DNA of 64,000 bases, from contig JAOLAV010000002.1 in assembly GCA_028338895.1 (NCBI GenBank), positions 3,857 to 67,856 on the forward strand, in the 5' to 3' direction. The position numbers and the translations under genes are program-made. Positions within the stretch are counted from its first letter, which is position 1. Every line of letters begins with the position of its first letter. This DNA comes from Fidelibacterota bacterium (lineage in GTDB: Bacteria; Fidelibacterota; Marinisomatia; Marinisomatales; UBA1611). The notes under the pieces are model-generated. The model ran no database searches and was not told the origin of the DNA. It saw only the letters and a program-made list of their open reading frames with translations. Shown piece after piece: positions 5,423-60,077 of the stretch.

Positions 5423-5507
5423 CTATCTAAATTTCACATATAAACACCTCTAGGAAAACAAAAATCGAATTTAAAAAGAGTTATTATAATTGTAATTTCT
5501 ATACTGT

Positions 5508-12874: not shown

Positions 12875-12880
12875 TTCTGT

Positions 12881-13894: not shown

Positions 13895-13900
13895 CTTTAA

Positions 13901-14428: not shown

Positions 14429-14444
14429 ATTAGACTCCTATTAA

Positions 14445-16868
14445 TTAAAATTGTTGACCAAATGTTAATGTCGTTTTCCATTTTGGATCAAGTTGCCCAT
14501 ATGAATCAACTCGATCAAATCCATATCCAATATCGAATCCAAGCTTACCTATCATTGGCATAAAAAATCTTACACCTGCTCCAAGAGATCGTTTTAAATC
14601 AAAGGGACCTCTTCTAGGTAGATTAAGTCTTTCCATTAAATCAGTTGAAGACCAAACATTTCCCATCTCAGCAAATACAATGCCATAAATTACAGGGTTT
14701 TCTGCGAAGGGCACTCGAAATTCTGTTCCAATTTTAACCATTGTATTTCCACCAATTGGATTAAGGCTTGATGTCAGCGGGCCAACTCTATTATCATCAT
14801 ATCCTCTTAAAGGATTTCCATAAGGGATACCATTCCCCCCCATAATAAAACGATCATTATACGGTATGAAAGAAATCCCACCGTCTTTAGAGGATAATTC
14901 TTTAATAACTCCAATTTTAAAAGAATTTGTTAAAACAAATTTCCAAAATGTGGGTGTATACCATTCCAAATTTAAAGTATGCTTATGAAAATTTTCTTGC
15001 CCCCCTAATAATCCTCCAGACAATGTTGAATTAATAGAAAAATGAGAACCTATTGTCGGGAATTCGGGATGATCTCGACTATCCCTTCTTATAATTTGAT
15101 TTAGCGAGATACCATCTGATTGTTGCATTCCACCAGCATATCGATCTAAATCTTCTTGAGTACCTTCATTTATTCTTCTAGCCATTTGAATAGACCAAGT
15201 GCCTCTAAAATAATCATCCGGCCATTTAAAAATACGACCCCACATAATACTACCACCAGCTAGAGTTGTTAAAAGAGGAGAATAGTATGTCGTTGAGCCA
15301 CCACCTTGTAGTCTGTAAAATATAGATCCCCCTAACAGATTTTTAGTATCGTTAACCATGGGATCAGTAAAACTAATACTTGCTGTTCTATATTTAGGTT
15401 GGCTCGAATTAAGGTTTTGATAATTATAATTATTTTGACCACCAACATTTGTTCCAACATTAAAACTAAAACTAAAGCTCTGTCCTTTTCCTCTAAAATT
15501 TGGTAGTGCAAGGCCACCGCCACCAGTCATTCCTAAAGATTGGGTATAGCCCATATTTGCACTAGCTTGACCCGCTGGTTTTTCTTCAACCGTAAATTGA
15601 ATATCTACTTTATCTTCCGATACTGGAACTATGTTCGGAGCAGCATTAGCAAAAAAGTTTAACATCATAACTTCTCTATAACTTCGAGCAATTCTTTCTT
15701 GACTATAAACATCTCCAGGAAAAACTCTTAATTGCCTTCTAATAACATTTTCACGTGTGCGAGTATTTCCTTGAATATCAATATGATTAATGTAAACCTT
15801 ATGGTTCTCAGTTATAACAAAGTGTATATCTAGTGAATCCTCTCCAATAGGAGTGACTTGAGGTTCAATCCGACTGTATATATACCCTCTATCTAAGTAT
15901 AGACCCTGTACTCTTGAAAAAACAGCCATATTAAAAGCTTCTTCACTATAGATATCTCCTTTTTCTAATGATAATGCTCGAGTTAATTTACTTTGATCAA
16001 ATAAAGACATTCCCTCCCATGAAAAATTTCTATAGTTGTAGGAAGGCCCTTCTTCTATTTTTAGAAGTAAATTAATTTTTTTGTTATTTTTTGAATACTC
16101 TAGCGAGTCACTTAATATTTGAAAGTCACGGTATCCTTTATTTCTATAAAAAGTTGAAATCAGTGCTAAATCTTCTTCAAATTTCTTTTTATCGAATGTC
16201 GATCTCCAAAAAAAGTACCATGGCTGTTGTTTTGTCTCTTTTAATTTCCAACGCAATCTAAAATCGGAAAATGCTTGATTACCTTCAAAAAGAATTTTAC
16301 CAATTTTAGTTTTATTGTTTTCTTTTATTGTGTAAACAATATTCCTTGCAAGCTCTTTTCCTTTTCCACCGAAAAGTGTGAATTTTTCAGTTGGCACCTC
16401 TAGTATTGATTCTATTGTAACATTTAAATAACCTTTTTCGGCATAAAGCTTTTTTATTTGTTCAGTGGCCTGGCTAAGTGTATTTGGCTTAATTCGTTGA
16501 CCTTCTGAAAAGGACAATTCTTCATTTATTTTAGAATCTTTTAATTTTTTGTTACCTTTATATTTTATTTTATTTAAAATAAAGTTTTCAAGTACAACAA
16601 TTGTAATCGAGACACCATCTTTAGACTCTTCGTTATATTCTATCTGTATATCTTGAAAAAGACCTAATTTCCAAAGACGTTTTATAGCTCGAGGAAAATC
16701 AACAGGAGATATAGCCTGCCCCTCCTTAAGCCCAGCCGTAAATAATATAGTATTATTAGAAGTAATAATATTTCCTTTAATAGAAACTTTAGAGAGCTGA
16801 ATACTCTCTTCTTTACCCTGCGAAAAGATTAAGGAAATAGATACAAAAAAAATCCAAAAAAAGTTCAA
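14445..16868 (-). CDS. bamA: Outer membrane protein assembly factor BamA
   Basis: 807 aa with a signal peptide and POTRA-like N-terminal repeats. The C-terminal barrel ends in ...TLTFGQQF. Lies downstream of uppS. Confidence 0.9.
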   Translation of the reverse strand: MNFFWIFFVSISLIFSQGKEESIQLSKVSIKGNIITSNNTILFTAGLKEGQAISPVDFPRAIKRLWKLGLFQDIQIEYNEESKDGVSITIVVLENFILNKIKYKGNKKLKDSKINEELSFSEGQRIKPNTLSQATEQIKKLYAEKGYLNVTIESILEVPTEKFTLFGGKGKELARNIVYTIKENNKTKIGKILFEGNQAFSDFRLRWKLKETKQQPWYFFWRSTFDKKKFEEDLALISTFYRNKGYRDFQILSDSLEYSKNNKKINLLLKIEEGPSYNYRNFSWEGMSLFDQSKLTRALSLEKGDIYSEEAFNMAVFSRVQGLYLDRGYIYSRIEPQVTPIGEDSLDIHFVITENHKVYINHIDIQGNTRTRENVIRRQLRVFPGDVYSQERIARSYREVMMLNFFANAAPNIVPVSEDKVDIQFTVEEKPAGQASANMGYTQSLGMTGGGGLALPNFRGKGQSFSFSFNVGTNVGGQNNYNYQNLNSSQPKYRTASISFTDPMVNDTKNLLGGSIFYRLQGGGSTTYYSPLLTTLAGGSIMWGRIFKWPDDYFRGTWSIQMARRINEGTQEDLDRYAGGMQQSDGISLNQIIRRDSRDHPEFPTIGSHFSINSTLSGGLLGGQENFHKHTLNLEWYTPTFWKFVLTNSFKIGVIKELSSKDGGISFIPYNDRFIMGGNGIPYGNPLRGYDDNRVGPLTSSLNPIGGNTMVKIGTEFRVPFAENPVIYGIVFAEMGNVWSSTDLMERLNLPRRGPFDLKRSLGAGVRFFMPMIGKLGFDIGYGFDRVDSYGQLDPKWKTTLTFGQQF

Positions 16869-45981: not shown

Positions 45982-45987
45982 TTATTG

Positions 45988-47124
45988 ATGGAAATTAAAA
46001 AAAAGTTTTTTTTGCTGGCAGGAGAACCTTCCGGAGATTTGCACGGCAGTAAACTAATAAAGGCAATTAAAATACTAGAACCAAACTCTTCATTCATAGG
46101 TCATGGAGGAGACTTAATGAGAGCAGAAGGTATGACTATTTTAGAACACATTGACAACCTTTCTTTTATGGGTTTTACCGAAGTAATTAAACACCTTCCT
46201 CGAATTATAAAAATTCTGAAAAAAACGAAAAATGCAATTCAAAAATTAAAACCAGATAGAATTATTTTGATTGATTACCCGGGTTTTAATCTTCAGATAG
46301 CAAAGCAAGTTTCAAACTTATCAATACCTATCACTTTTTTTATATTACCTCAAGTTTGGGCATGGAAAAAAAATAGGATAAAAATTTTAAAAGAAAACAC
46401 AGATCAATTGATAGGAATTTTCCCTTTTGAAAAAAAATGGTTTCATATCAATGATGTGGATATTGAATTTTTAGGACATCCTTTCGCCGATGATAAACAC
46501 ATAGGAGAGACTTCAAAATCATTCTATGGTCGCCATAATTTAACCATTGAGCACCCTATCTTATTATTGCTGCCGGGAAGTCGAGAGCAAGAAATTTACA
46601 GACATTGGCCTATTTTTTTAGAAGTAGCCAATAGGATAAAGCTTAAATTTCCTAAAATGCAAATCATACTTGGAAAGCCGGATCATATTTTCATTGATAA
46701 GATACCCGATTATATTAAAATTGAAAAAAATGCAAAAAAAGCGATGTTAGTCTCTACCGCAGCCATTGTAGCCTCAGGAACAGCAACTCTCGAATGCGCA
46801 ATTGAAAATCTTCCAATGGTGACTTGCTATAAAATGTCTTTTATATCATGGGTTATAGCAAAGTCTGTAGTTAAGCTAAAATATTCATGTATGCCAAATA
46901 TAATGGCTAGTAAAGAAATTGTTCCAGAACTACTACAAGGGCAAATGAAATCAGATAATATTATAGAGCACATTACTCCCCTGTTAGATATAAACTCAAA
47001 AAAAAGAAAAAGGATGATCAAAAAATTAGAACCGATTAGAACAGGACTTGGATCTCCGGGTGTTTATAATCGAGTAGCTAAAACTATATTGAATAGAACA
47101 GCTTTAAATGAAAGAAAAAATTAA
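45988..47124 (+). CDS. lpxB: Lipid-A-disaccharide synthase
   Basis: N-terminal AGEPSGDLHG motif and GT-B layout. ATG at 45988; the ORF track begins at a TTG one codon earlier. Confidence 0.9.
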   Translation: MEIKKKFFLLAGEPSGDLHGSKLIKAIKILEPNSSFIGHGGDLMRAEGMTILEHIDNLSFMGFTEVIKHLPRIIKILKKTKNAIQKLKPDRIILIDYPGFNLQIAKQVSNLSIPITFFILPQVWAWKKNRIKILKENTDQLIGIFPFEKKWFHINDVDIEFLGHPFADDKHIGETSKSFYGRHNLTIEHPILLLLPGSREQEIYRHWPIFLEVANRIKLKFPKMQIILGKPDHIFIDKIPDYIKIEKNAKKAMLVSTAAIVASGTATLECAIENLPMVTCYKMSFISWVIAKSVVKLKYSCMPNIMASKEIVPELLQGQMKSDNIIEHITPLLDINSKKRKRMIKKLEPIRTGLGSPGVYNRVAKTILNRTALNERKN

Positions 47125-47755
47125 AATAATTTTAAAGAAACATATAGTTAGCTTTTTTTTAAAATTATTGTATTCTACAAATACTTACGATGTGAGAGGA
47201 AGAGAAAACTATATTAGAGCTAAAGAATCGGGAAAATCAATAATTATATCCTTGTGGCATTCTCAATTGCTCTCAGTTTTTTACGATTTAAAAGATATAA
47301 AAGTTTATGCACTTGCCGGAACACATAAAGATGCTGAAATAATTTCTCAAGTAGCTTTAAAATGGGGATGGAACATGATTCGAGGCTCTAGTAAAGAAGA
47401 TGGAGCAAAAGCGTACAAAGAAATATTGAAGATTTTAAAGAGCGGTCAAAAGATTTTATTTATTACACCTGATGGACCAACTGGCCCAGCTAAAGTTCCA
47501 AAGCTTGGAATTATCAGAGCAGCAAAAAAAACTGGAACCATAATTATACCAGCTAGTACACATTCAACTCGAAGATGGGGATTCACAAATTGGGACACAT
47601 TTTTTTTAGAAAAGCCATTTGGGAAAATTTATATCAAATATGGCAAGCCTTTACTTTTAGAAGACTCAATATCAGATACAGAGTCATCTAGAAAGCTCGT
47701 AGAAGCGATGGAACAAGTTGAACTAGAAAACTTGCATTATGCAAATAAAAAATAA
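47108..47755 (+). CDS. DUF374-domain protein (lysophospholipid acyltransferase-like, uncharacterised)
   Basis: LWHSQLL, IRGSSKEDGAKA, ITPDGPTGP and NWDTFFLEKPF blocks match my recollection of DUF374. Overlaps both lpxB and lpxK. Confidence 0.75.
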   Translation: MKEKIKIILKKHIVSFFLKLLYSTNTYDVRGRENYIRAKESGKSIIISLWHSQLLSVFYDLKDIKVYALAGTHKDAEIISQVALKWGWNMIRGSSKEDGAKAYKEILKILKSGQKILFITPDGPTGPAKVPKLGIIRAAKKTGTIIIPASTHSTRRWGFTNWDTFFLEKPFGKIYIKYGKPLLLEDSISDTESSRKLVEAMEQVELENLHYANKK

Positions 47756-48842
47756 ATTTAAGCATCTTAAAAAACTATTATATCCTTTGAGTGCTATATA
47801 TTATCTTTTTATCTTTTTTAGAAATTTACTTTTTGATTATAATATTGTTAAGCAAAACAAACTTTTATGCCCCGTTATTAGTATTGGGAATATTTCTACT
47901 GGTGGTTCAGGAAAAACACCTATGGTCATATACTTAGTTAATTTACTAAAAAAGAATAATCTAAAAGTTGGTATTTTAACTCGAGGATATGGACGTTTAG
48001 TTGAAACCCCAATTATAATTTGTAACGAAAATAAAAAAATTAAACAAAATTTAAATTTTCTAAAAATAGGAGATGAGCCTCTTTTATTTTTTGAAAAATT
48101 AAATGGTGTTCCAATTGGTATTGATAAGAATAGATTTAGGACTGGTAAAATTCTTCTAAAAAATTATAATCTAGATGTAATCGTACTGGATGACGGTTTT
48201 CAACATCGCTCTTTATATAGAGATTTTGAAGTTGTTTTAATTAATAGCCTCCATAAAAAAAGGAATCACAAGTTATTACCTGTTGGATTTTTAAGAGAAT
48301 CTTTTTCAAGTTTAAAAAGAACTGATTGTGTTATTGTTACAAAAAATAATTTATCACAACCTCAAAATAAATTAATTGAAAAAATTGAAAATTTTCAGCC
48401 AAATATTTATTATTCTAGATCCATAAATAATATTTCTAAAATATCTATTCCAAAAATTAATGCATTAGAACTTTTAAAAAATAAAAAAGCCTATTTATTA
48501 TCAGGAATAGGGGATCCTTTGAGTTTTCAATTAAGTATAAAAAGTCTTTCCAAAAATATAGTTGGTCATTGTAATCTTAAAGATCACTTTAACTATTCTC
48601 AAAAAGACTTAAATAAAATCGAAATTGAAGCTAAAAAGAAAAATGCAGATTTTATTTTAACAACGGAAAAAGATTGGGTTAAGCTAAAAAGCTTAAATTC
48701 AAAAATGCCGGTTTTACCAGCTAACCTAGAACTGTCTATTGATGATAAAGTAAATGGATTAAGTTTTAAAGAACTAATAAATGATAAAATTAAATTTGAG
48801 ACATACCATAGGCAAAAACGACACCCACAAAAGTTAACATAA
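47739..48842 (+). CDS. lpxK: Tetraacyldisaccharide 4'-kinase
   Basis: N-terminal membrane helix, P-loop GNISTGGSGKTP, DDGFQH motif. Confidence 0.9.
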   Translation: MQIKNKFKHLKKLLYPLSAIYYLFIFFRNLLFDYNIVKQNKLLCPVISIGNISTGGSGKTPMVIYLVNLLKKNNLKVGILTRGYGRLVETPIIICNENKKIKQNLNFLKIGDEPLLFFEKLNGVPIGIDKNRFRTGKILLKNYNLDVIVLDDGFQHRSLYRDFEVVLINSLHKKRNHKLLPVGFLRESFSSLKRTDCVIVTKNNLSQPQNKLIEKIENFQPNIYYSRSINNISKISIPKINALELLKNKKAYLLSGIGDPLSFQLSIKSLSKNIVGHCNLKDHFNYSQKDLNKIEIEAKKKNADFILTTEKDWVKLKSLNSKMPVLPANLELSIDDKVNGLSFKELINDKIKFETYHRQKRHPQKLT

Positions 48843-51800
48843 GTGGCCAACCAGTATTAACAAGTTGCTTAGAACTAGGGTCATGGAATACATGAACTTG
48901 GAATTCGTGAGTTGAAGTGGCACCATGCTCGTCAACCGCCATTAGAATAAAATCATTCATACCCATTTGGTTTTTTCTAGGTGACCATTCGAGCGTAGCT
49001 TTGTTTTTATCAAATCTAGCATACTTAGGTAATCTAACCGCTCGATAGGCTACTTTATCCCCATTTAAATCTTCAGTTACTATTTTATAGCGCCAAGAAT
49101 GTCCCGTTAAACCTACTGGTTTCGGGTTTGAAATTATTGTTGGTGCATTATTAATAAATATTTTACCCTGTTGGACGTCCGTTCCGTAACCATCGCTTAC
49201 GGCGACTTCAAATGAATTATTATTAATCTGAGCTGCTTTAGGAACCCATAGTATTTTACCATATCTATCCATTTGCATCCCGTGCGGTCCTTTAAGTAAG
49301 GTGTATTCCAACTTTGTATTTTTATTTTTATCATCAACTCTGACTTGGTATTTAAATAATTCTCCAGCGAGTCCCATATGAGGAGGATTTGAAACAATCG
49401 TTGGTAAATGATTTGCGTATACTTCATATGTCTGTTCATCTTTTGTATATCCATCCGAAACAACAACAGTTATTCTATGAGCATCCGATTGTTCTACATT
49501 TGGCGTCCAACGCAATGTTCCCGAGGAACCTTCAACGACCATTCCTTCCGGGAAGTCTAATAAATTAAATCGAAATGGATTTACTTTTTCCACGACAACT
49601 CTTGGAGGCTTCCCTTTTGCTCCATTAAAAAACTCCCAAAGAAAATCCTTCATTTTAATTGTCCGACCATCTATATTTTCTAATAAAACCCAGAGTCTAT
49701 CTTCTTCAAAAAAGACGGAATGTGTATATTTTTTTAAATTAAGCCTGGAGACTAAACTATCGGCTGGGTATTTTGGGTCAAAATAATAAATAGCTTCACT
49801 GTTATGCCAATCCCCTAAATATCTATCAATATTTGAAAGCGCTACATCGTCAGTTATGTTAATTGAATACATTCTTATAGAAGAAATATTTTCAACCTTT
49901 ACAACCTTTTTAAATGGTAATAAAGAGCCTTTATTTCTATCATTTATCATTATTTTGTATGCATACTCATCGCCAACAGTTGCAGACATTGGAGGAACTG
50001 AGACAATTTTTGTCGGAGCATTAACAAAAAACTCTGCTTCAATAACTCTAGATTCGTGGCCGTCTGAAACTTCAATTTGAAGTTGATGAAAATCTAATTC
50101 GTTCATTGTTGGCTCCCAACGCAAAAAGCCTGTTTGAGGATCCATTCGCATCCCTTGAGGTAATTTGTGAGCTGTATAAACTAATCTGTCATTTTTGTTA
50201 GGCTCTTCAACCGTTAATTCAAAATCCCAAATTCCACCAACATTAATAGTATTCATCATCATCGGAGCAGACTTTATTATTGGAGGATGATTAACAAATA
50301 AATTTACAAATTGCGTATCTGTTGCAACTCCATGGCTGGCAATAATTGAATATTTTATGGTGTCAACTTGAACTGGATTAGGAGTCCAAGAAATAGTACC
50401 ATCTGGCTGTATAATCATACCGTCTGGTCCAAAAAACAGCTTATAACTTATTTTTTCATCGGCTTTCTGTCGCCATACTTTTACAGGATAATTATAGATA
50501 GTGCCAACACTTGCTTTTTCAGGAGCTTTTGAAAGAATCTTAACTCCAGCTCTAGAAAAAAGTTGAAATTCTTGAGCTGTTCGCTCGAAACCATCTGATG
50601 CAACAATTCGTACATTGTAAACCTCAACATGTGCACTGTCTGTCTTCCAAACTACAATACCATTTTCAATTGTCATTCCATCTGGAGAAACTTCTAACTC
50701 TAATTTTATTGAACTATCTTTATTAAGGTCTTGAACAATAGGCTCATATCTGAAGGTTGAACCGGCAATAAATTCTGTAATAGTTGGCTGAGTTAAAAAT
50801 CTTGGTGGGTCATTAACATAAACCCACAAACTCTCATCTCGACTCTCTAAAACTGGAGTTGCTTTAAAAACTTGTTCCGCTTCATTAACCCCTGTATAGG
50901 GCTCCATTATTTCATCAACTTTCATTCTAACCATATAGGATAACGGAAAGGCATCTAATTGTTTATCTGTTGGTACCCAATTAATAGACTTACTATCATA
51001 TAAAAAATACATACCCTTAGGAGGCTGATTATCCCATCTAAAGCTATAAAACTCATCGCTACTGTCTTTTGGTATTTCATATAAGAATGGTTGACTCGGC
51101 CTAAGGACATACCTTGGTAAAATATGCTTTGGAAGCCTTTGCCCAAGCGATTCTTTTGGCTTCGGTAATTTTGGCTGTTCTAAAGTCCTTATAATTTTTT
51201 TTGGTATAGACATTCGAGGCTGCTCTCTTAAAACTTTACCTTCTTTTTGACTTGGTGAAATTGTATTTGGTATATAACTACTTGGAGACTGACCTAAATC
51301 AGTTATAATTAACTCTTCTAATTGAGGCTCAAGCGGTACTTTTTCTTCTGGTGGTAACTCTATAAAAACCTCTGGAAAATCCGGCTCTAAGTCTTGGGTA
51401 TTGGAAAGTAAATTAGGAAGTTGTGATTTTATGAAATCTGGAGTTATTAAGTAACCTTGGTCTAGCTGGCCTGATTTATTTCCGAGTTGAATAACATATG
51501 TTGAATTTTGTTCTCCATCCCAAGCTGAAATAAGGACACTTCCATTATATAAGCCGGCTTTTGTCATTGGTAACATTGAAAAGACCTGCATTTCTGAAGG
51601 AATATTTCTCATGGCATCTCGAACCGGTTGTGATGTCCCATCTTTTCCTGAAATCAAAGTTAAGGTATTTAAATCAGATGAAAGAGCTAATATATCTTCA
51701 TGGGTGTCTTGATTAAAATCTTCCAATGAGACTTGAGTTAAAGGACCACTATTAATCGGTACTTCATCTATTACAAGAGTAGCGGGAGTTAATGTAAACG

Positions 51801-52674
51801 CAATAATGTCACCTGATTTAAAGGAGACTAAAACATCAAAAAAACCATCAGAGTCCCAATCCGTTAATTCAATAGAATATGGTAAAATACCATTTAAACC
51901 ATCCACTTGTTTACGAACTAGATGCCCAGAGTCAAAAACACCGCCGATATTATAAAAGGGTTGTGCCTTGATAGTATTTCCATCTGGACTTAATGCTAAT
52001 ATATCATCATAACCATCACCATCATAATCCACTACACCAACATATAATAAGCCAGAGCCAACAAGTAATTGGTCTGGACGAACTTTTTTTGTTAATGTAA
52101 GACCTGAGGCTGACGAGTTAACAATTGCGAAACCACGAAAAGGACTTCCAAGTGCTAATACTAATTCTTGGTCACCATCAGAATCTTGATCTAGTAATTG
52201 AAAGTTATTGCACCTCAGAGATCTATTTTCTTTACCTACATCTAGTGTAGCGGTTGGTATTTCTGAAAAATTTGTGCCATCCCAAGAGTATGTTGCTATA
52301 AATACATGAGGTGTTGTATTACCCTCAAATCGCGTCAAATTCATTACAATTACAAGCTCTGGAGATCCATCCCCATCCATATCGCCTATTTTTGCATCAA
52401 CAAAATCGCCACTTAATTCAGTTGGAGGTGTGAATTCCCAAATTAAATTTTGATAACCATCCACATTTATTTCATAGTATCTAACTTTATTCGGGAAAAT
52501 ACTTTCATTCGGATTTAATTCAAGTGCTATAAACTCGAGCATTTGATCGCCGTCAAGGTCATAGGTTCCATTCATGTTTGATATCTTCTGAGAAAATAAA
52601 CTCGAAAATAAAAACACTGCCAGGATCAATTTTATTGAAAATAAATTGTCCTTCGTCTTTTTAAGAACTAACAA
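48790..52674 (-). CDS. Giant exported protein (1294 aa): FG-GAP/integrin-alpha-like propeller region, Pro-rich linker, seven cadherin-like/He_PIG-type repeats and a C-terminal TM anchor
   Basis: Leader MLVLKKTKDNLFSIKLILAVFLFSSLFSQ with a TTG start. Six D-x-D/N-x-D-G-like motifs (e.g. DLDGDQ, DMDGDGSPELV, DQDSDGDQELV, DYDGDGYDDIL, DWDSDGFFDVL). Repeated P-x-GM...G.i.W.P...vSDG modules. Terminal hydrophobic helix GWPLMLTFVGVVFAYGM. Confidence 0.8.
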   Translation of the reverse strand: MLVLKKTKDNLFSIKLILAVFLFSSLFSQKISNMNGTYDLDGDQMLEFIALELNPNESIFPNKVRYYEINVDGYQNLIWEFTPPTELSGDFVDAKIGDMDGDGSPELVIVMNLTRFEGNTTPHVFIATYSWDGTNFSEIPTATLDVGKENRSLRCNNFQLLDQDSDGDQELVLALGSPFRGFAIVNSSASGLTLTKKVRPDQLLVGSGLLYVGVVDYDGDGYDDILALSPDGNTIKAQPFYNIGGVFDSGHLVRKQVDGLNGILPYSIELTDWDSDGFFDVLVSFKSGDIIAFTLTPATLVIDEVPINSGPLTQVSLEDFNQDTHEDILALSSDLNTLTLISGKDGTSQPVRDAMRNIPSEMQVFSMLPMTKAGLYNGSVLISAWDGEQNSTYVIQLGNKSGQLDQGYLITPDFIKSQLPNLLSNTQDLEPDFPEVFIELPPEEKVPLEPQLEELIITDLGQSPSSYIPNTISPSQKEGKVLREQPRMSIPKKIIRTLEQPKLPKPKESLGQRLPKHILPRYVLRPSQPFLYEIPKDSSDEFYSFRWDNQPPKGMYFLYDSKSINWVPTDKQLDAFPLSYMVRMKVDEIMEPYTGVNEAEQVFKATPVLESRDESLWVYVNDPPRFLTQPTITEFIAGSTFRYEPIVQDLNKDSSIKLELEVSPDGMTIENGIVVWKTDSAHVEVYNVRIVASDGFERTAQEFQLFSRAGVKILSKAPEKASVGTIYNYPVKVWRQKADEKISYKLFFGPDGMIIQPDGTISWTPNPVQVDTIKYSIIASHGVATDTQFVNLFVNHPPIIKSAPMMMNTINVGGIWDFELTVEEPNKNDRLVYTAHKLPQGMRMDPQTGFLRWEPTMNELDFHQLQIEVSDGHESRVIEAEFFVNAPTKIVSVPPMSATVGDEYAYKIMINDRNKGSLLPFKKVVKVENISSIRMYSINITDDVALSNIDRYLGDWHNSEAIYYFDPKYPADSLVSRLNLKKYTHSVFFEEDRLWVLLENIDGRTIKMKDFLWEFFNGAKGKPPRVVVEKVNPFRFNLLDFPEGMVVEGSSGTLRWTPNVEQSDAHRITVVVSDGYTKDEQTYEVYANHLPTIVSNPPHMGLAGELFKYQVRVDDKNKNTKLEYTLLKGPHGMQMDRYGKILWVPKAAQINNNSFEVAVSDGYGTDVQQGKIFINNAPTIISNPKPVGLTGHSWRYKIVTEDLNGDKVAYRAVRLPKYARFDKNKATLEWSPRKNQMGMNDFILMAVDEHGATSTHEFQVHVFHDPSSKQLVNTGWPLMLTFVGVVFAYGMSQI
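48889..51102 (-). repeat. Seven tandem cadherin-like / He_PIG-type Ig-fold repeats of about 85-100 aa inside the 1294-aa ORF (the first is degenerate, the fourth is split)
   Basis: Recurring N(H/A/D)(P/L)P.I... F.Y.v...D.n....l.Y.l...P.GM.id..G.l.W.P.......v.vSDG pattern at about aa 525-620, 621-708, 709-793, 794-884, 885-1086, 1087-1174 and 1175-1262. Confidence 0.7.
51475..52569 (-). repeat. FG-GAP-like Ca-binding motif repeats (putative beta-propeller blades) in the 1294-aa ORF
   Basis: Aspartate-rich loops, each followed by hydrophobic strands, spaced about 55-60 aa apart (aa ~39, 98, 162, 216, 272, 319). Confidence 0.6.
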
Positions 52675-52683
52675 AATATTATA

Positions 52684-55239
52684 TCAGCCTTCATCTTTAG
52701 AAAGGCTATCAATGTTTGGCTCGGGTTGATTCTTATCTGTTTCGGAAGTGGAATCATTAGTCTTTTTGGGTAAAGTATTTTTTACTTCTTCAAGCTTTAG
52801 AGAGTCACTTGAATCTTTCTTTATGTTTAATTCTATTTTCTCAACTTCTAAAACTTTAGGGTTTTCTTCATCCTTTTGAGTTTGAGGAACATTTTTTATT
52901 GAATCTAATTTTACTTCATCAACCTGTAAACTTTGTTTTGGAATATTACTTTGTTTTGGTGAAATAGGAATTTTTGGCTCTTGCTGTTCTGGCTGGGCAT
53001 CGGGTAGCCGAGGCTCTCTATAAACTTTAGGTATTTTGCCTTTAGGTCCAAAAATAGGCTCTTCCAATGAACCGCCTTGTAAGAGTTTAATCTTTAATTC
53101 TTCAGGAAAAAATTCTTGAATTAGCCTTGAGAACATAACGGCTGGCTCGACCGAACCAATTAAATCAAACTCTGTCGTAACTTTTTTAGAACCGTTGGCG
53201 CGAACAATAATCTCCCCTCTAATCGCTTGCAATATTCCTTCATCCATGAAAACAGCTAAAGATTGAGAGGGTAAAGAAGGAGTTGTTGAAGAAAGATATA
53301 TTCCTTGGTATAAAGAATCATCAGTTTTATCAAAAGTAAAACGAATTAATTTTTGCGTAAAGTCCATATCTAATGAATTTGGAAAACCTTCAAAGAAATA
53401 ATCAGGAAATTCAAACAATTTAGGGTCAAACGATTCTGGCTGATAAGACTGAGAAAGTGAATCGTCTGTTGGCGAAATTGACATAAAAACAACATTTGTT
53501 TGCATATCATGAACCATAGTAAGTGTTGTAATACTATCTAATTGAGAATCTCTTAATGAGTATGCGAAATCAAATGTTTCGCCAAAGTTCAAATTAGCTA
53601 AGTTTGCTGAAATTCCGTGCTGAAAGTGGGTTGGGTCTCCTTTTTGGGGGATTTGATTAACAGCAACACCAAATGGAGCTTCGCCATCAAAAACGTATCG
53701 GTCTTTGGTGGCAGAAGATGGTGTCATAGCTAAAACATAATAGAGATCAATATCATTTCCGGTAACCTGGTTAACCATTGTATCTTTATTTATTACTTTA
53801 GGACTTAACGCATCAATGGTTTTTTTTGTAAATGTTGTTATTTCAGTATCCATGTTCGGAATAGAAGATTTTTCTTTAATTGTATCAGGTACTTCAGGAA
53901 TGTATTCACCAAGATCTAGCTTTGTAAAGCCTGCTTCATCTGCCCAATAAACACTTTGCATATCCGAATTTATTTTGGGAATTTGGATTTTTTCTAAATT
54001 GATTTTTTTGTTTTGAGTCTTACTTTTTGCACTTGCTAAAAAGTCTCCTAGCGTTGGGCTTAAAGTAGAATAATCCTTTTCATCTTTAGTTTTAGACTCA
54101 ACGTCTAAGCTCTTTTCTCTGAGCAGAAGACTTTTCACATTTTTTTCATATTCTAATGTTAAGCTGTCAAAGTTTTTTTCTTTATCCGTTAAGATATCTG
54201 AGGGAGATATTATGGCTTTTTTATCACTTTTTAGTCCATCAGCACTAATATTTTCAACTTGAGTTATATTATAAATTTCTATGTCCTGTCTAAGCTTAAA
54301 TAGATCTCTTATACGCCCTTCGTCTTTAATTGGAAATGCGTTTTTGCCAGATAAACTCGTTTCTGGAAAAAAAAGCTTACTATTTTTAAGGGTTAAAAGA
54401 AAAACATCGTCCGATGCAAAAGGCACAAGTAAGCCCTCTTCATAATTTTTTCCAAAAGTATGGAATGGTTGCAAGTCTGAGCCTAAAATATATCTAGATT
54501 TTTCAATTGGGATAGAACCGCTTTTAGAAAGTGTAAAGTCCATAGAAATATCAAATAAAGCAACTTTGAGGGTGTTCTTTTCTGGCGATATCATAGCGAT
54601 ATAATTTTCACCATCAGAAATAAAACCACCAACATAGACTGCGCCGTAACCATTTTCAATTATAGGCGCAGATAATACTTTAATATTTTTTAAATCTATA
54701 CGTTCATTAGAAATATCAATGTTAAAAACTAAACTATATCTAATTGGAGCTCCAAAAGAGACAGCAAGGGCATGAGGTCCTCCTGGCACTAAAGATAAAC
54801 TAGAAGGCCTTAAAGTACTAATTTCAAAAGGTAGGTCTTTATAGGTGTATGGCTTGTTTGAGAAACCTTCTTTTGACCCTTGAAAGACATAAAGCCAAGT
54901 ACTTGAACCAATAGATGCAAATAAATCAGGAATAATAATGATATCCTCAAAACCATCATTATCTAAGTCTGTTATTTCTAAATCGGAAAATTTTTGCCCT
55001 TTAGGCAAATTATATGTCCATAAAGTATCTATTTGATCAGAACCTGAGAACTCAACCCAAATAGCACTGGACGTGCGCGTGTTAATGGCGAAAGTCTCTA
55101 AATTGCCATCTTCATCTAGGTCAAAAGACCTGTTTATGTGGAAGTTACCCCGACCTACCATAATAGATATGAGCAATGACCATATAAAGAATATCTTTAA
55201 GAAGCTCATTTTAGCTCTTATGAACGTAGTTAACCTCAT
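52684..55239 (-). CDS. Large exported protein (851 aa): N-terminal region paralogous to the FG-GAP region of the downstream giant ORF, unique middle, low-complexity P/E/K/Q C-terminus
   Basis: Signal peptide. FDLDEDGNLETF and TDLDNDGFEDIIII align with YDLDGDQMLEFI and GDMDGDGSPELVIV of the neighbour. No C-terminal TM. Ends 9 nt upstream of the 1294-aa ORF. Confidence 0.75.
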   Translation of the reverse strand: MRLTTFIRAKMSFLKIFFIWSLLISIMVGRGNFHINRSFDLDEDGNLETFAINTRTSSAIWVEFSGSDQIDTLWTYNLPKGQKFSDLEITDLDNDGFEDIIIIPDLFASIGSSTWLYVFQGSKEGFSNKPYTYKDLPFEISTLRPSSLSLVPGGPHALAVSFGAPIRYSLVFNIDISNERIDLKNIKVLSAPIIENGYGAVYVGGFISDGENYIAMISPEKNTLKVALFDISMDFTLSKSGSIPIEKSRYILGSDLQPFHTFGKNYEEGLLVPFASDDVFLLTLKNSKLFFPETSLSGKNAFPIKDEGRIRDLFKLRQDIEIYNITQVENISADGLKSDKKAIISPSDILTDKEKNFDSLTLEYEKNVKSLLLREKSLDVESKTKDEKDYSTLSPTLGDFLASAKSKTQNKKINLEKIQIPKINSDMQSVYWADEAGFTKLDLGEYIPEVPDTIKEKSSIPNMDTEITTFTKKTIDALSPKVINKDTMVNQVTGNDIDLYYVLAMTPSSATKDRYVFDGEAPFGVAVNQIPQKGDPTHFQHGISANLANLNFGETFDFAYSLRDSQLDSITTLTMVHDMQTNVVFMSISPTDDSLSQSYQPESFDPKLFEFPDYFFEGFPNSLDMDFTQKLIRFTFDKTDDSLYQGIYLSSTTPSLPSQSLAVFMDEGILQAIRGEIIVRANGSKKVTTEFDLIGSVEPAVMFSRLIQEFFPEELKIKLLQGGSLEEPIFGPKGKIPKVYREPRLPDAQPEQQEPKIPISPKQSNIPKQSLQVDEVKLDSIKNVPQTQKDEENPKVLEVEKIELNIKKDSSDSLKLEEVKNTLPKKTNDSTSETDKNQPEPNIDSLSKDEG

Positions 55240-55465: not shown

Positions 55466-56314
55466 ATGAAAAATATATTTTTTTTATTTACAATTAACTT
55501 TTCGATTCTTTTTGGTCAATTCAGCTACCCTGCTGAAGACTTCCTTGGGGGTGGTATTGGCTATAGCCCAATGTATATTAAACTTGAATCAATTCCAGGT
55601 GCAGACTCGCTTGTAAACCTTGGACTCGATCCAAATAATTTTGCAGATCCATTCGTTGTACATGGTGGAGAAGGTTTTGCGCATGTAACTGGTCGATGGC
55701 GTATCGGGGGATATGCAGGTATGGGAGGATCATCTATAAGCACAATTCCAACTATTAAAGTTTACGTTGACACAGAGGCGGAAGGCTGGCAAAGCGAAGA
55801 GACTCAAGACTACACCGATGATTTTAATCCTTCTATTAAAGCAAAATTTTCATTTCTTCTTGGTGCGGCATCGGTTGAATATGTTATGCCTTTATTACAA
55901 GATTTAGAACTTTCATCAGGAGCACTAATGGGTCTCGGTAGAGTTGGTATGGCTATTGACCAGCAGAGTGGAAATCCTAGATGGGATAAGGTCTTTTCTA
56001 ATGCTTATGGAACAATGACGGATGGCGTTTTATATTACCCGGTTTTGGATATAAATAATCCAGACGATATAATTCCCGGAAAGGTTGCTGGCTTACAAAG
56101 AGATGTAAGTGCTATTTTTTTTAATTTTCAACCATATATAGCTGTTAAATGGCAATTTCTAGAACGCTTAGGATTGAGAATTAGTGTTGGTGCAAATAAA
56201 GGGACAGTAAATGCTGGAAGCTGGAAACTTAATGGACGAACTCCAATTAGTGATTCACCAAAATCTTCAATAAGCGGAATTACATTTAGAACCATGCTAT
56301 ATATTGGTCTCTAA
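55466..56314 (+). CDS. Hypothetical outer-membrane beta-barrel protein
   Basis: The ATG at 55466 gives signal peptide MKNIFFLFTINFSILFGQ (the ORF-track GTG at 55433 is less likely). Gly/aromatic-rich alternating pattern. No family recognised. Confidence 0.45.
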   Translation: MKNIFFLFTINFSILFGQFSYPAEDFLGGGIGYSPMYIKLESIPGADSLVNLGLDPNNFADPFVVHGGEGFAHVTGRWRIGGYAGMGGSSISTIPTIKVYVDTEAEGWQSEETQDYTDDFNPSIKAKFSFLLGAASVEYVMPLLQDLELSSGALMGLGRVGMAIDQQSGNPRWDKVFSNAYGTMTDGVLYYPVLDINNPDDIIPGKVAGLQRDVSAIFFNFQPYIAVKWQFLERLGLRISVGANKGTVNAGSWKLNGRTPISDSPKSSISGITFRTMLYIGL

Positions 56315-56328
56315 ACTTCCTAAATAAT

Positions 56329-57933
56329 ATGTTTCAAAAATTTCGCCAGATATGGCCTCTGGTATTATCCACAGCATTTGGATTTCTATTGGCAACGCTT
56401 CTTTTTTTGCCTAGAGCTTATTCGAGCAACCAGAACGTTTACAAAGTACTAAGAGAAAAAATTAACGTTCTCCAACAAATGATTTCTTATGTAAACCATT
56501 TTTATTTTGATTCAGTTGACATGGAAAAAATTATGGATGGTGCTTTTCGTGGACTAATGGAAGAACTTGATCCTCATTCAACATATATCCCCGCAAAAGA
56601 ACAAGAAAATATAAATGAGGTTTTTAAAGGAAAATTTCAAGGGATTGGTATCGAATTTGATATTTTAGATGGTTTTATTACTGTTATTTCTCCAGTACCT
56701 GATAGCCCCTCTGATATTGTAGGTCTCATGCCTGGTGATAAGTTAATCGCAATAAATGGAGATGATGCTTATAAAATCACAAAAAATGAAGTCTTTGAAA
56801 AATTAAGAGGTCGAAAAGGGACAAAGGTTGTTGTTACAATCAGTCGAATAGGTAAAAGAAAGCCATTCGACGTAACAATTATCCGAGATAATATTCCTAT
56901 TTATAGTGTGGGTGCCGCAACTATGATCGATAGTGAAACAGGGTATATATTTCTCAGGCGCTTTTCCGCAACAACCGAAAAAGAAGTCACAGCTGCTATT
57001 GATACTTTAATAAATCAAGGAATGAAAAAATTATTATTTGATTTAAGAGGAAATAGTGGCGGCTACTTAGAACAGGCTGCTGCAATATCTGACCAGTTTA
57101 TAACTAGTGTAGACACACTAGTTTATACAAAAGGAAAAATAAAAGAATCAAATCAACAGTTTATTAGTAATGAAGATAAAGGACACGATGATTTTTCATT
57201 AGTTGTGATGATTAATCGTGGGTCTGCAAGTGCTGCTGAAATAGTTTCCGGTGCAGTTCAAGATTTAGATAGAGGACTCGTTGTAGGTGAAACTAGTTTT
57301 GGAAAAGGACTTGTACAGCGGCAGCTACCTCTAGATTCCGGTGCCGCTTTGAGAGTAACTATTGCAAGATATTATACTCCTTCAGGACGACTAATTCAAC
57401 GTCCATATGAAGATGGAAATGATCTTGCATATTATAGAGAATTATATGCAAAAGATAGAGAATCTAAAATTGATAGCCTTAAAGAGCTAAGGCCTAAATA
57501 TAAAACAAAATCAGGAAGGACTGTATATGGAGGAGGAGGAATTACTCCAGATATTTACATACCATATAAAAATTCTATAAATTCAGAGACTGGTAAAATT
57601 GTAAGAAATCCAAAAAGACCAATTTTTAATTTTGCCTCTAAATACGCATCAAAAAAGAAAAATGATTTCATTTCTTTTAAAAGCTTCAAAAAAGATTGGA
57701 TAGTTTCAGACTCTTTAGTAACTGTTTTTTTTAGCCAACTTGACAATGATTCAATTACTGTAATAACAGATTCCGTCTTGATTGATATTGAATATATAAA
57801 AAACACAATAAAGAGTGAAATAGCTGGATCCGTGTGGGGAAAAGATGAAGCGGCAAATATAAGATTACTTTTTGATAACCAGGTAGTTGAGGCTTTAAAA
57901 CATTTTAATGAAGCAGATGCATTTTTAGATTGA
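56329..57933 (+). CDS. ctpA: Carboxy-terminal processing protease (S41 family, with PDZ domain)
   Basis: PDZ (GLMPGDKLIAINGD) and catalytic blocks NRGSASAAEI and ETSFGKGLVQ. N-terminal TM/signal. Confidence 0.9.
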   Translation: MFQKFRQIWPLVLSTAFGFLLATLLFLPRAYSSNQNVYKVLREKINVLQQMISYVNHFYFDSVDMEKIMDGAFRGLMEELDPHSTYIPAKEQENINEVFKGKFQGIGIEFDILDGFITVISPVPDSPSDIVGLMPGDKLIAINGDDAYKITKNEVFEKLRGRKGTKVVVTISRIGKRKPFDVTIIRDNIPIYSVGAATMIDSETGYIFLRRFSATTEKEVTAAIDTLINQGMKKLLFDLRGNSGGYLEQAAAISDQFITSVDTLVYTKGKIKESNQQFISNEDKGHDDFSLVVMINRGSASAAEIVSGAVQDLDRGLVVGETSFGKGLVQRQLPLDSGAALRVTIARYYTPSGRLIQRPYEDGNDLAYYRELYAKDRESKIDSLKELRPKYKTKSGRTVYGGGGITPDIYIPYKNSINSETGKIVRNPKRPIFNFASKYASKKKNDFISFKSFKKDWIVSDSLVTVFFSQLDNDSITVITDSVLIDIEYIKNTIKSEIAGSVWGKDEAANIRLLFDNQVVEALKHFNEADAFLD

Positions 57934-58015: not shown

Positions 58016-58630
58016 ATGGTATATTATTTTTTAGAAGGCGGCGCTTTTATGTGGCCTATCTTAATGACATTAATTTTTGGGCTTGCGTTTGTAATAGAAC
58101 GTGCATACTCTCTTATGATGTCTGGAGTAGACTCACAGGCTTTTTTCGAAGAGATTACCTTATCGATTAAAGAAAAAGGTAATGATGAAGCGGCAAAAAC
58201 TTGTCAAGAAACCGATGGACCTGTTGCCGCTATTTTTTATGCCGGTTTAATAAAAGTAAATCGTGGCTTAGAAGAAGTTGAGAAAGGAATTCAAAATGCC
58301 GGTGCAATTGAAATGGCCTTTCTTGAAAGAAACATGATTTGGCTCAATGCTGTAATTACCGTTGCTCCCATGCTTGGTTTTACTGGAACAGTTGTCGGGA
58401 TGATTGGAGCATTTGATGCTATTAAAGCTGCAAACGATATTTCGCCTGCCGTTGTTGCTGGAGGTATTTCTCAGGCTCTATTAACAACCGCTTTTGGACT
58501 TATTGTTGCCATGATTATTCAGGTCTTCCAAAATGTTTTTGTCTCGAGAATTGACAAACTCGTGTTAGATATGGAGGAACAATCGAATAAGTTCATGGAT
58601 CATCTTTATGAACTGAACGAAAAAAAATAA
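58016..58630 (+). CDS. exbB: MotA/TolQ/ExbB-family proton channel
   Basis: GGAFMWPIL N-terminus and a C-terminal conserved helix pair (APMLGFTGTVVGMI...ALLTTAFGLIVA). GGAG SD upstream. Confidence 0.85.
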   Translation: MVYYFLEGGAFMWPILMTLIFGLAFVIERAYSLMMSGVDSQAFFEEITLSIKEKGNDEAAKTCQETDGPVAAIFYAGLIKVNRGLEEVEKGIQNAGAIEMAFLERNMIWLNAVITVAPMLGFTGTVVGMIGAFDAIKAANDISPAVVAGGISQALLTTAFGLIVAMIIQVFQNVFVSRIDKLVLDMEEQSNKFMDHLYELNEKK

Positions 58631-58647
58631 AACCCTTATAAATTTTG

Positions 58648-59046
58648 ATGAAAAAAAATCGAAGATTTAAAGGCGGAGAAATACCAACTTCTTCAATGGC
58701 TGACATTGCATTCCTTTTATTAATATTTTTTCTAGTTACAACGACGATTGATACAGATAAAGGCCTTGGGATTGTACTACCGCCTCCAGGTGATATGGAA
58801 ATTGAAATTAGAAAAGATAATATTGTTAATTGTCTTATTAACTCCCAAGGAAAAGTTTTATTAGATGAAGAGCCAACCAGCATTGAACAAATTCATCGTA
58901 TTGTGGGAGAAAGACTAAGAGCAAATAACAAACTAGTAATTTCTGTAAAAGCGCATCCCAAAACAGCATATAATGATTATGTAAGAGTCATCGATCAATT
59001 AAAAAGAGCAGACGCAAAAAGAATATCAATAGCAAATAGCAATTAA
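58648..59046 (+). CDS. exbD: Biopolymer transport protein ExbD/TolR (copy 1)
   Basis: N-terminal IPTSSMADIAFLLLIFFLVTT TM signature and a periplasmic alpha/beta domain. ATG at 58648. Confidence 0.85.
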   Translation: MKKNRRFKGGEIPTSSMADIAFLLLIFFLVTTTIDTDKGLGIVLPPPGDMEIEIRKDNIVNCLINSQGKVLLDEEPTSIEQIHRIVGERLRANNKLVISVKAHPKTAYNDYVRVIDQLKRADAKRISIANSN

Positions 59047-59052
59047 TAAAGA

Positions 59053-59463
59053 ATGAAATTTTCAAAAAAAACAAAAGTATCCAGTGAAATACCAACAGCA
59101 TCAATGCCCGACATTATTTTTATGCTACTTATATTTTTTATGGTTACTACTGTATTGAAAGAATATTCGGGTTTGCCGGTTAATCTTCCTAAAGCAAAAA
59201 GAATAGAAAAGTTAAAATCAAAAAGGCATACAGTTCAGATCTGGGTTTCTAAAGAGGGTTTAATTTCTATTGATGATAGACTAATGGGTGTCGATGATGT
59301 CTCTTTAGTTATGTATGACAAAAGAGTCGCAGACCCTCAAATAGTTGTCTCTTTAAAAGGAGACGAAGAAGCTGAAATGGGTCTTATTTCTGATATACAT
59401 GAAAATTTGCGAGAAGTAGAAGCTCTTAAATTAAATTATTCGACTAAAACACTTGTAGATTGA
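59053..59463 (+). CDS. exbD: Biopolymer transport protein ExbD/TolR (copy 2)
   Basis: IPTASMPDIIFMLLIFFMVTT signature. Paralogue of the preceding gene. Confidence 0.85.
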   Translation: MKFSKKTKVSSEIPTASMPDIIFMLLIFFMVTTVLKEYSGLPVNLPKAKRIEKLKSKRHTVQIWVSKEGLISIDDRLMGVDDVSLVMYDKRVADPQIVVSLKGDEEAEMGLISDIHENLREVEALKLNYSTKTLVD

Positions 59464-60077
59464 TGGATTTTATAAACCCAGTAAAAACTAGATATCCTGT
59501 GGTAATCAGAGTTACTACTCTTATCGGTGTAGGATTAGTTATTTCAAATTTTTTATTGTTTCCAAGATTTGGAAATGATATTGAATTTGATAGTGTCGAA
59601 CAGGTAATTATAGAAAATATAGATATACCTCAGACACAACAAATTGATAATACACCTCCTCCCGCAAGACCATCCATTCCAGTGCCATCTGATGATGAAG
59701 ATATAGCTGAAGATTTAACATTAGATGAATTAGATTTTGATGATTTTTCTAACCTTGATGCACCACCTCCTCCTCCTTCTGGACCTAAAGTAGTTTTCAT
59801 ACCATACGATGATCCACCAGTAGCAATGTCACCAATAAGACCCGTTTATCCAGAGATTGCGCAAGAAGCAGGTATTGAAGGTGTTGTTATAGTTCAAGCT
59901 TTTATAGATGAAAGAGGAAGGGTTAAAGAGACATTGATTCTTAAAGGAGTTCCAAATACTGGTTTAGATGAAGCAGCGATGAGCGCAATTAAGAAGACTC
60001 GATTTAGACCAGCAAAACAAAGGGAGCGGGCCGTTGGAGTCTGGATTTCAATTCCTGTGAACTTTAGACTAAAATAA
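59463..60077 (+). CDS. tonB: Energy transducer TonB
   Basis: N-terminal TM, Pro-rich spacer (TPPPARPSIPVP, APPPPPSGP) and a C-terminal TonB domain (YPEIAQEAGIEGVVIVQAFIDERG...RFRPA). The ATG overlaps the exbD stop (TGATG). Confidence 0.8.
   Translation: MDFINPVKTRYPVVIRVTTLIGVGLVISNFLLFPRFGNDIEFDSVEQVIIENIDIPQTQQIDNTPPPARPSIPVPSDDEDIAEDLTLDELDFDDFSNLDAPPPPPSGPKVVFIPYDDPPVAMSPIRPVYPEIAQEAGIEGVVIVQAFIDERGRVKETLILKGVPNTGLDEAAMSAIKKTRFRPAKQRERAVGVWISIPVNFRLK

Follow-up and report, generated by a model that had tools for sequence, protein, structure and literature searches.

We analysed a 64,000-nt stretch of DNA from a Fidelibacterota bacterium (assembly GCA_028338895.1, contig JAOLAV010000002.1; hereafter the window) with regard to two large neighbouring genes on its reverse strand, which we call A and B. 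According to the list of open reading frames (ORFs), gene A (52684..55239) has an ATG start and encodes 851 aa, while gene B (48790..52674) starts with TTG and encodes 1294 aa. The latter is a predicted type-I anchored protein that combines a propeller with immunoglobulin-like (Ig) domains, and A is its putatively secreted paralogue. An earlier note, made by a model from the letters of the window, had pointed out these two ORFs as a candidate envelope system. Both are present as described, i.e., the TGA of A is separated from the TTG of B by 9 nt, and the pair covers 6450 of the 64,000 nt of the window. A and B form an operon, which is present in every sampled lineage of Marinimicrobia (SAR406), and we tentatively suggest that their products may form a scaffold or tether within the cell envelope. 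The architecture and the operon structure are held at much higher confidence than any function.

The G+C content of the window is about 32%, which makes stop codons frequent, so that the length of both ORFs is not a matter of chance. Chance ORFs are also discounted by the full-length presence of A and B in more than 100 species genomes. A terminator scan found no terminator-like site in the 9-nt gap between both genes, and a promoter scan gave 19 promoter-like sites compared to 25.9 expected. In relatives, the A/B junction is found with 4-nt overlaps. In 92 loci, the sequence upstream of B extends for 2.7 kb or more. In 89 of them, B is preceded on the same strand by an ORF of 500 or more codons, and 75-132 nt (in one locus, 278 nt) separate the end of this ORF from the first conserved motif of B. 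That is, the stop codon of this ORF is located at or overlaps the start of B. The other three loci show ORFs of 408-458 codons in the position of A. In two of these, tblastn identifies more A-like sequence further upstream, such that A may be split there.

Protein B starts with a predicted signal peptide (aa 1-29, 52588..52674), for which the N-termini of the family suggest a cleavage between LFS and QK. It is followed by an FG-GAP/VCBS propeller with six Asp-rich loops (aa 37-397, 51484..52566), delimited by Pfam, alignment and AlphaFold2 and seven-bladed if judged by its strand pattern (the blade counts of both proteins, i.e., seven in B and about five in A, are read from such patterns alone). 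Composition and the AlphaFold2 model define a Pro-rich linker (aa 398-510, 51145..51483), in which an acidic block precedes a basic one. The subsequent stalk consists of seven He_PIG-type Ig-like domains (aa 511-1265, 48880..51144; Pfam, AlphaFold2 and Foldseek), of which the fifth (Ig5) carries an alpha/beta insert of about 115 aa (aa 915-1030, 49585..49932) that is visible in the AlphaFold2 secondary structure. The remainder, delimited by the C-termini of the family, comprises the C-terminal end of the stalk and a hydrophobic anchor (48793..48879), such that the chain ends with DPSSKQLVNTGWPLMLTFVGVVFAYGMSQI-COOH.

With regard to profiles, B belongs to both the FG-GAP/VCBS propeller and the He_PIG Ig-like class, and the same assignment is obtained by fold. 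It matches the Pfam family FG-GAP_3 (PF13517) with 61.5 bits (cut-off 26.9) in three stretches and He_PIG (PF05345) with 114.5 bits (cut-off 24) in six stretches; FG-GAP (PF01839) and Big_9 are matched as well. The domain classes named by the earlier note, i.e., FG-GAP/VCBS propeller and He_PIG/cadherin-like repeats, are thus found by Pfam, AlphaFold2 and Foldseek alike. Among the six calcium-loop motifs of B, those at aa 98, 162, 216 and 272 follow the strict pattern D-x-[DN]-x-[DN]-G, and those at aa 39 and 319 are looser. The loop Asp residues are invariant among 23 homologues with 44-89% identity to the window protein, which is in line with a putative binding of Ca2+ by the propeller.

The AlphaFold2 model of B covers residues 1-1200, is based on 23 homologues and reaches a mean predicted local distance difference test (pLDDT) of 69. 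Its N-terminal helix corresponds to the signal peptide. The propeller (aa 37-397) is modelled with moderate confidence, with pLDDT values of 63-83 for its first half that drop to 25-62 for its second half. The linker is disordered for aa 421-507, and from aa 511 on the model shows Ig-like sandwiches with pLDDT values of 75-90. There are seven of them when the last repeat, which is located beyond residue 1200, is counted. Seven He_PIG-type repeats had also been proposed by the earlier note, which did not see the insert in Ig5. This insert is highly conserved (84% in close relatives) and matches no Pfam or NCBIfam family. The linker contains 17% Pro and forms a charge dipole: aa 430-460 have a net charge of -9 and six Pro, aa 480-525 a net charge of +10 and seven Pro. 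In the family alignment, its basic half is kept and the remainder is rich in gaps. Searching the PDB with Foldseek relates B to tandem Ig/cadherin strings (neurofascin, titin, contactins, DSCAM, cadherins and gp210), with generic and very low TM-scores (0.06-0.09); the gp210 chains have 1426-1586 aligned columns.

Both ends of B are well defined throughout the family. The signal peptides of all lineages show a basic n-region, a hydrophobic core of about 12-15 residues and mostly a predicted cleavage after Ala, Gly or Ser and before Gln. At the C-terminus, we find 70 distinct forms in 140 loci, all of which follow the pattern ...H.F.DPS..Q.(V/I)(N/S)T(G/S)WPL(M/L)L.FVG..F..G...-COOH. In all 70, the chain ends inside the hydrophobic segment or 3-4 residues past it, and no charged residue follows the hydrophobic stretch in any of them. 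Most lineages end with [AS]-Q-[IFL]-COOH, the deepest ones with -AMQ, -ALN or -AVQ. The topology proposed by the earlier note, i.e., a signal peptide combined with a C-terminal anchor, agrees with these family termini, from which we infer that B is type-I anchored after export via Sec.

Protein A begins with a hydrophobic, signal-peptide-like helix that is similar to the N-termini of the B family, and it is probably soluble after export. Three parts can be distinguished: a propeller (aa ~31-320, 54280..55149; Pfam, AlphaFold2, Foldseek and hhalign) with two calcium-loop motifs and, after a linker, a conserved core (aa ~490-745, 53005..53772) that stands out by its conservation within the family, and a variable low-complexity tail of K/E/P/S-rich composition (aa 746-851, 52687..53004). 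The only Pfam family matched is FG-GAP_3 (28.5 bits, cut-off 26.9, E=2.4e-6). Both D-x-D-x-D-G loops (aa 40 and 91) have Asp residues that are invariant in the family alignment. In the AlphaFold2 model of A, confidence is restricted to aa 30-320, an all-beta region (pLDDT 70-88) that Foldseek relates to propellers, CRTAC1 among them. The best conserved part is the core, which shows 80% identity in close relatives compared to 43% for the propeller and 39% for linker and tail; the tail is also interrupted by gaps (30-39% of the family alignment). No match of this 255-aa core was found in Pfam, NCBIfam or the PDB. The anatomy given for A by the earlier note thus holds for the two loops and the tail, but not for its uniform 'unique middle', which contains the very part that is conserved best and that the note had missed.

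The paralogy of both N-termini, likewise part of the earlier claim, is supported by BLASTP (E=2e-11, 26% identity over 212 aa) and by an hhalign comparison of the two families (99% probability, E=8.8e-18, 281 columns). Since the latter aligns residues 12-296 of A with 11-307 of B, the propeller of A is indeed collinear with that of B but corresponds to only about five of its seven blades (blades 1-5). In the deepest lineages (loci L084-L107), the slot of A is occupied by a shorter form, A', of 550-690 aa that has no A core. It consists of a propeller, an invariant helix (INDILLARAE), several acidic repeats with 'V.KV.LTS' and one He_PIG-like domain that resembles Ig1 of B. The B proteins of these loci show 27-32% identity to the window protein in the propeller and 41-48% in the Ig region. 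An A subgroup, P0188, has both the Ig1-like domain and the core. Given the domain makeup of A' and P0188, we conclude that the pair arose by tandem duplication of a gene that encoded at least propeller, linker and Ig1, after which the upstream copy (A) lost stalk and anchor and diversified in its C-terminal half.

Homologue searches resulted in 95 clusters for B (42-89% identity, most of them full-length with 1197-1297 aa) and 35 clusters for A (44-98% identity). In a scan with one genome per species, at least 112 GTDB species carry B. The organism-level titles of these records are all Marinimicrobia or Neomarinimicrobiota, the rest being given as 'uncultured bacterium' or 'bacterium', and the named members of the A clusters are all Marinimicrobia or Fidelibacterota. 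An exhaustive hidden Markov model (HMM) search of the A family among 1.84 billion representatives gave 234 matches, mostly fragments of the A family itself, and no A core outside of it. A second homologue search with the A alignment as query found no additional relatives.

Each locus has one copy of B. Two complete syntenic copies of the locus are found in the metagenome-assembled genome (MAG) ERR318620_bin.68 (loci L043 and L062), where the B proteins are 60% and 44% identical to that of the window; most likely, two Marinimicrobia lineages were binned together here and the locus is not truly duplicated. In the MAG L053, the slot of A (5400-5930) measures about 560 nt and contains, on the reverse strand, an apparent N-terminal fragment of an IS3-like transposase as well as the end of a C-terminal domain as used by the type IX secretion system (T9SS; …GMYLYQLKMANFVKTKKLVLLK*), which suggests either a rearrangement mediated by an insertion sequence or a chimeric assembly.

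To relate the evolutionary rate of B to its neighbourhood, we compared median identities of B, Ctp, ExbB and LpxK, which are 80/77/80/41% among close and 44/56/69/38% among distant relatives. That is, B is as slow-evolving as Ctp and ExbB and far more conserved than LpxK. Its conservation increases towards the C-terminus, and the last 39 residues change slowest (90% identity in close and 67% in the most distant relatives). The Ig string shows no indels over 69 species. Its repeats are only 23-35% identical to each other (alignments of at least 50 residues), i.e., they are ancient and each of them has been fixed individually. Both A and B are under strong purifying selection.

The neighbours of the pair on the other side of A are encoded on the forward strand and had gone unmentioned in the earlier note. 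Divergent from A, we find a gene that we call O (55466..56314, 282 aa), followed after 14 nt by Ctp (56329..57933), a C-terminal processing protease of the S41 family (Pfam Peptidase_S41, E=2e-45) with a PDZ domain. Further downstream, there is an ExbB-ExbD-ExbD-TonB cluster (58016..60077), identified by Pfam (MotA_ExbB, TonB_C) and, for ExbD, by the annotation of relatives. Among 163 loci investigated with tblastn, this order (ExbB, Ctp and O running away from A and B) is found wherever the locus reaches far enough. O adjoins A in every locus with enough flank on that side, and Ctp is syntenic in all loci.

Protein O has a predicted signal peptide and its beta-amphipathic periodicity exceeds that of shuffled sequences (z=3). 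It contains invariant, Gly-rich motifs (GGGIGYSPMY, HGGEGFAH, GRWRIGGYAGMG and FFNFQPYVAVKWQ) and ends with ...FRTMLYIGL. No match was found in Pfam, NCBIfam or the PDB apart from one chance PDB match (E=1.4). We read O as a probable beta-barrel protein of the outer membrane. Its family is undescribed and was found here only beside the A/B pair. For the signal peptides of O and B (55466-55520 and 52588-52674 of the window), cleavage is mostly predicted between Ala, Gly or Ser and Gln, which results in a mature Gln start; in the deepest lineages, the site lies between K and DLQ. Such Gln starts resemble the 'Q-rule' of Bacteroidetes, which is said not to cover the whole Fibrobacteres-Chlorobi-Bacteroidetes group (PMC5837995).

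On the other side of the pair, the LpxK ORF (47739-48842, forward strand) converges with gene B. Both overlap by 53 nt (48790-48842), which leaves no intergenic room for terminators. In the relative L001, this overlap is just 4 nt and LpxK is shorter by 24 aa. LpxK is usually convergent on the 3' end of B, and this flank is rearranged in some lineages. Further envelope-related genes of the window (7634-8803, 14445-16868 and 45985-48842) are RseP, BamA with five POTRA domains, LpxB, DUF374 and LpxK itself. Outside the A/B locus, the window is housekeeping in character and also encodes an H+-pyrophosphatase, PriA, UvrA and SdhAB. The order of genes from SdhAB to YchF is the same in L001, whose B protein is 61% identical to that of the window.

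Among the known systems close to B is the alpha subunit of integrins, which has a similar overall layout. In both proteins, a signal peptide precedes an FG-GAP propeller of seven blades with Ca2+ loops, which is followed by a leg composed of Ig-like beta-sandwiches and by a single C-terminal membrane anchor. The leg of integrin alpha consists of thigh, calf-1 and calf-2, that of B of seven He_PIG-type domains, with no Integrin_alpha2 listed by Pfam at E<=1. Furthermore, B has a linker of about 110 aa between propeller and leg and no cytoplasmic tail, hence no GFFKR motif. Integrin alpha pairs with a second subunit, which for B is only presumed: its candidate partner A is a paralogous propeller protein with no VWA match in Pfam, while the integrin partner is a beta subunit with a betaI/VWA domain. 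Finally, the ectodomain of B is expected in the periplasm given the diderm host, unlike that of integrin alpha. In short, of the defining features of integrin alpha, B shows the propeller but neither the leg domains nor the cytoplasmic motif nor a beta subunit.

Bacterial FG-GAP/VCBS propeller proteins are uncharacterised members of the same superfamily with D-x-D-x-D-G loops in most blades (PMC3192720, PMC8023676). In the survey of Chouhan et al. (2011), bacterial integrin-type propellers were found without a transmembrane (TM) helix or recognisable leg domains (PMC3192720). Compared to these, B differs by its TM segment and leg domains, its conserved operon partner and its phylum-wide occurrence in single copy. 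With adhesins of the CADG/He_PIG and tandem-95/Big_9 type, B shares He_PIG, Big_9 and weak tandem-95 matches (31.6 for NCBIfam tandem-95, far below the cut-off of 90 bits). It also shows cadherin-like N-x-x-P motifs at its domain boundaries (VNDPP, VNHPP, VNAP), which are only partial versions of the inter-domain Ca2+ motifs of cadherins (DxD, DxNDN), and it is no classical cadherin (Cadherin_5 26.1 bits for a cut-off of 26.5; CELSR2_9th 13.8). The haloarchaeal S-layer glycoprotein and the nuclear-pore protein gp210 also combine a signal peptide, a string of Ig domains and a C-terminal membrane anchor. This is an architectural analogy without sequence relationship to B, which adds propeller and linker and has no PGF-CTERM match. 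With TonB and TolA, B has only the Pro-rich charge-dipole spacer in common; its TM segment is C-terminal, TonB_C is absent, and a bona fide TonB is encoded close to the pair.

PDB searches with the profiles of both families gave no matches. Public names of the homologues are 'VCBS repeat-containing protein' or 'hypothetical', and we found no paper that joins Marinimicrobia with FG-GAP or VCBS. Pfam, NCBIfam, PDB and literature name no described system for A and B, as had been claimed by the earlier note. Altogether, the propeller and Ig/cadherin folds it had proposed are supported, the two genes remain paired in relatives (89 of 92 loci), and no characterised family covers them.

We investigated the likely location of both proteins based on their sorting signals. 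In A, B and the last 50 aa of B, Pfam and NCBIfam show no match of the Por_Secre_tail type, i.e., no T9SS C-terminal domain. HemolysinCabind, indicative of repeats-in-toxin (RTX) export by the type I secretion system (T1SS), is not matched by A or B in Pfam; instead, a Sec-type signal peptide is found in all lineages. Autotransporter or other outer-membrane translocation signals were not found in either protein by Pfam or NCBIfam. Sorting signals such as PEP-CTERM, GlyGly-CTERM, PGF-CTERM and LPXTG have no NCBIfam match at E<=10 in the last 50 aa of B, given that HMMs of such short signals are insensitive. Another large ORF, at 12524-16360 of locus L065, was considered as part of a second paralogous pair and rejected, since it is an unrelated T9SS cargo protein, i.e., a LamG/lyase-like protein of 1278 aa with a typical T9SS C-terminal domain at its end (recognised by eye). 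Thus, the T9SS signal that A and B lack does occur in the phylum on one or more large proteins. Cells of a cultured representative of Marinimicrobia are diderm, with inner and outer membranes and lipopolysaccharide (LPS) (PMC11652737). In such a host, a protein that is exported via Sec and has a hydrophobic C-terminal anchor but no outer-membrane signals would by default stay in the inner membrane, with its ectodomain in the periplasm.

Given these observations, we tentatively favour, at a confidence well short of even, that A and B form a phylum-specific, inner-membrane-anchored and Ca-dependent scaffold or tether that spans the periplasm, and not a variable surface adhesin. Here, B would be exported by Sec and its signal peptide removed. 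Its last ~19 hydrophobic residues would be seated in the inner membrane in type-I orientation and without a cytoplasmic tail. The seven Ig-like domains would provide a stalk of about periplasmic length, i.e., ~28-31 nm when assuming ~4 nm per Ig domain (our own estimate). Their fixed number fits a spacer of defined length. At the distal end of the stalk, the Pro-rich acidic/basic linker would hold the Ca2+-loaded seven-bladed propeller. A, translated from the same mRNA, would be a soluble periplasmic paralogue that binds B via its five-blade-equivalent propeller and its conserved core. The resulting complex may tie the inner membrane to the wall or to the outer-membrane side. Such a role would fit the neighbourhood of the pair, where lpxB, lpxK, Ctp, TonB and BamA represent envelope biogenesis. 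Of the roles offered by the earlier note, an envelope system in general and the 'envelope-spanning tether' in particular thus fit better, while its adhesion role is at odds with slow evolution, fixed repeats and the missing T9SS domain.

Several observations weigh against such a tether. The anchor is atypical of a stop-transfer helix: its core is short (about 14-16 residues), the 19-residue Kyte-Doolittle mean is below 1.6, and there are no positive residues behind it. Stalk and extended linker together are possibly longer than the periplasm. On the side of A, residues 323-851 have pLDDT values below 40 and are thus uninformative with respect to structure, the role of the partner seems not to be uniform given that A' has no core in the deepest lineages, and L053 is the sole locus without gene A. 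The putative location depends on the lack of recognised export signals, such that a surface route of an unrecognised kind is conceivable. Finally, gene order is strongly conserved in this region (SdhAB to YchF in closer relatives), so that little can be concluded from O, Ctp and TonB being syntenic with the pair.

The most serious competitor, although we consider it unlikely, is that B is located together with A on the outer surface and acts as a Ca-dependent adhesin, which binds particles, polysaccharides or cells via its propeller. FG-GAP/VCBS propellers and He_PIG/cadherin-like repeats, both matched here in Pfam, are characteristic features of adhesins on bacterial surfaces, which classically present a binding domain at the far end of a long stalk. 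The best Foldseek matches of B are Ig/cadherin strings of eukaryotic cell adhesion. On the other hand, rapid turnover of repeats is usual in adhesins, while B is kept as a single copy per locus with housekeeping-level conservation, a fixed number of divergent repeats without indels and its strongest constraint at the membrane-proximal end. It also differs from large Ig-repeat adhesins in having no T1SS or T9SS signal, and its N-terminal Sec signal and C-terminal anchor place it at the inner membrane of a diderm cell. The adhesin explanation is thus weak, since B is single-copy and slow-evolving with seven fixed Ig domains, a conserved anchor and no T9SS domain.

Distinctly unlikely in our view is a module with the divergent operon. 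In this model, Ctp would have as its substrate or partner either A or the invariant, PDZ-ligand-like C-terminus of B, with O anchoring or exporting the complex; or the TM segment of B with its TonB-like Pro-rich dipole would be coupled to ExbB/ExbD. This is motivated by O and Ctp adjoining A in every locus, when the LpxK flank is sometimes rearranged, by the restriction of the conserved O family to the A/B pair, by the widespread [AS]-Q-[IFL]-COOH ending and by the charge dipole (-9, then +10, with 13 Pro). However, the C-terminus of B faces the cytoplasm in the predicted topology and is thus out of reach for a periplasmic Ctp, and the deepest lineages do not end with -Q-[IFL]. The operon already has its own TonB, and B has neither TonB_C nor an N-terminal TM segment. 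Furthermore, adjacency is weak evidence in a phylum whose genes broadly keep their order.

A further model, which we judge very unlikely, is a lattice in the periplasm or envelope that would give the cell its shape or stiffness and in which C-terminally anchored B molecules, along with A and Ca2+, would be packed side by side via their Ig domains. The layout of B matches that of haloarchaeal S-layer proteins and of gp210, which is among the Foldseek matches, and strict conservation of each Ig domain would fit many fixed lateral contacts. But the Foldseek TM-scores are very low and generic for Ig strings, and cryo-electron microscopy of the cultured member is reported only for membranes and LPS, the term S-layer being absent from the text of that article in the International Journal of Systematic and Evolutionary Microbiology (PMC11652737).

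Going beyond the tether, one may speculate about a phylum-specific trans-envelope machine composed of A, B, O, the PDZ-S41 protease and possibly ExbBD-TonB, i.e., an 'integrin-like' heteromer. In such a machine, the invariant, tail-less anchor would serve as recognition element (either a signal for sorting or processing of an undescribed kind or a helix that docks to a motor) and the fixed seven-Ig stalk would determine the geometry of the envelope or pass on force from one membrane to the other. We regard this as a long shot.

We likewise give little credence to A and B being unrelated, lineage-specific periplasmic 'VCBS repeat' proteins left by a tandem duplication without joint function, for which their uninformative NCBI names, the variable C-terminal half of A and the locus without A could be put forward, but not the overlapping or few-nt spacing kept in 89/92 loci (B identity 40-89%) nor the strong purifying selection on both genes. 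An anti-phage defence system was rejected, as A, B and O match 0 PADLOC families.

In the dark and low-oxygen ocean, Marinimicrobia (SAR406, Fidelibacterota) belong to the uncultured bacteria of highest abundance, yet to our knowledge their cell envelope is hardly described at all. The A/B pair would provide a clean lineage marker for the phylum. Furthermore, O, the A core and the Ig5 insert represent three phylum-specific undescribed families and are thus candidates for structure determination. With B, a full protein of propeller, Ig leg and membrane anchor is found in bacteria. Since the survey of 2011 reported neither TM nor leg domains for bacterial sequences (PMC3192720), the pair bears on the origin of integrin-like architectures. 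Its functional importance is hypothetical; still, a pair of ~2100 residues that is kept by every sampled lineage in small, AT-rich genomes, and whose evolution is as slow as that of ExbB and Ctp, is likely to matter for the cell biology of these bacteria.

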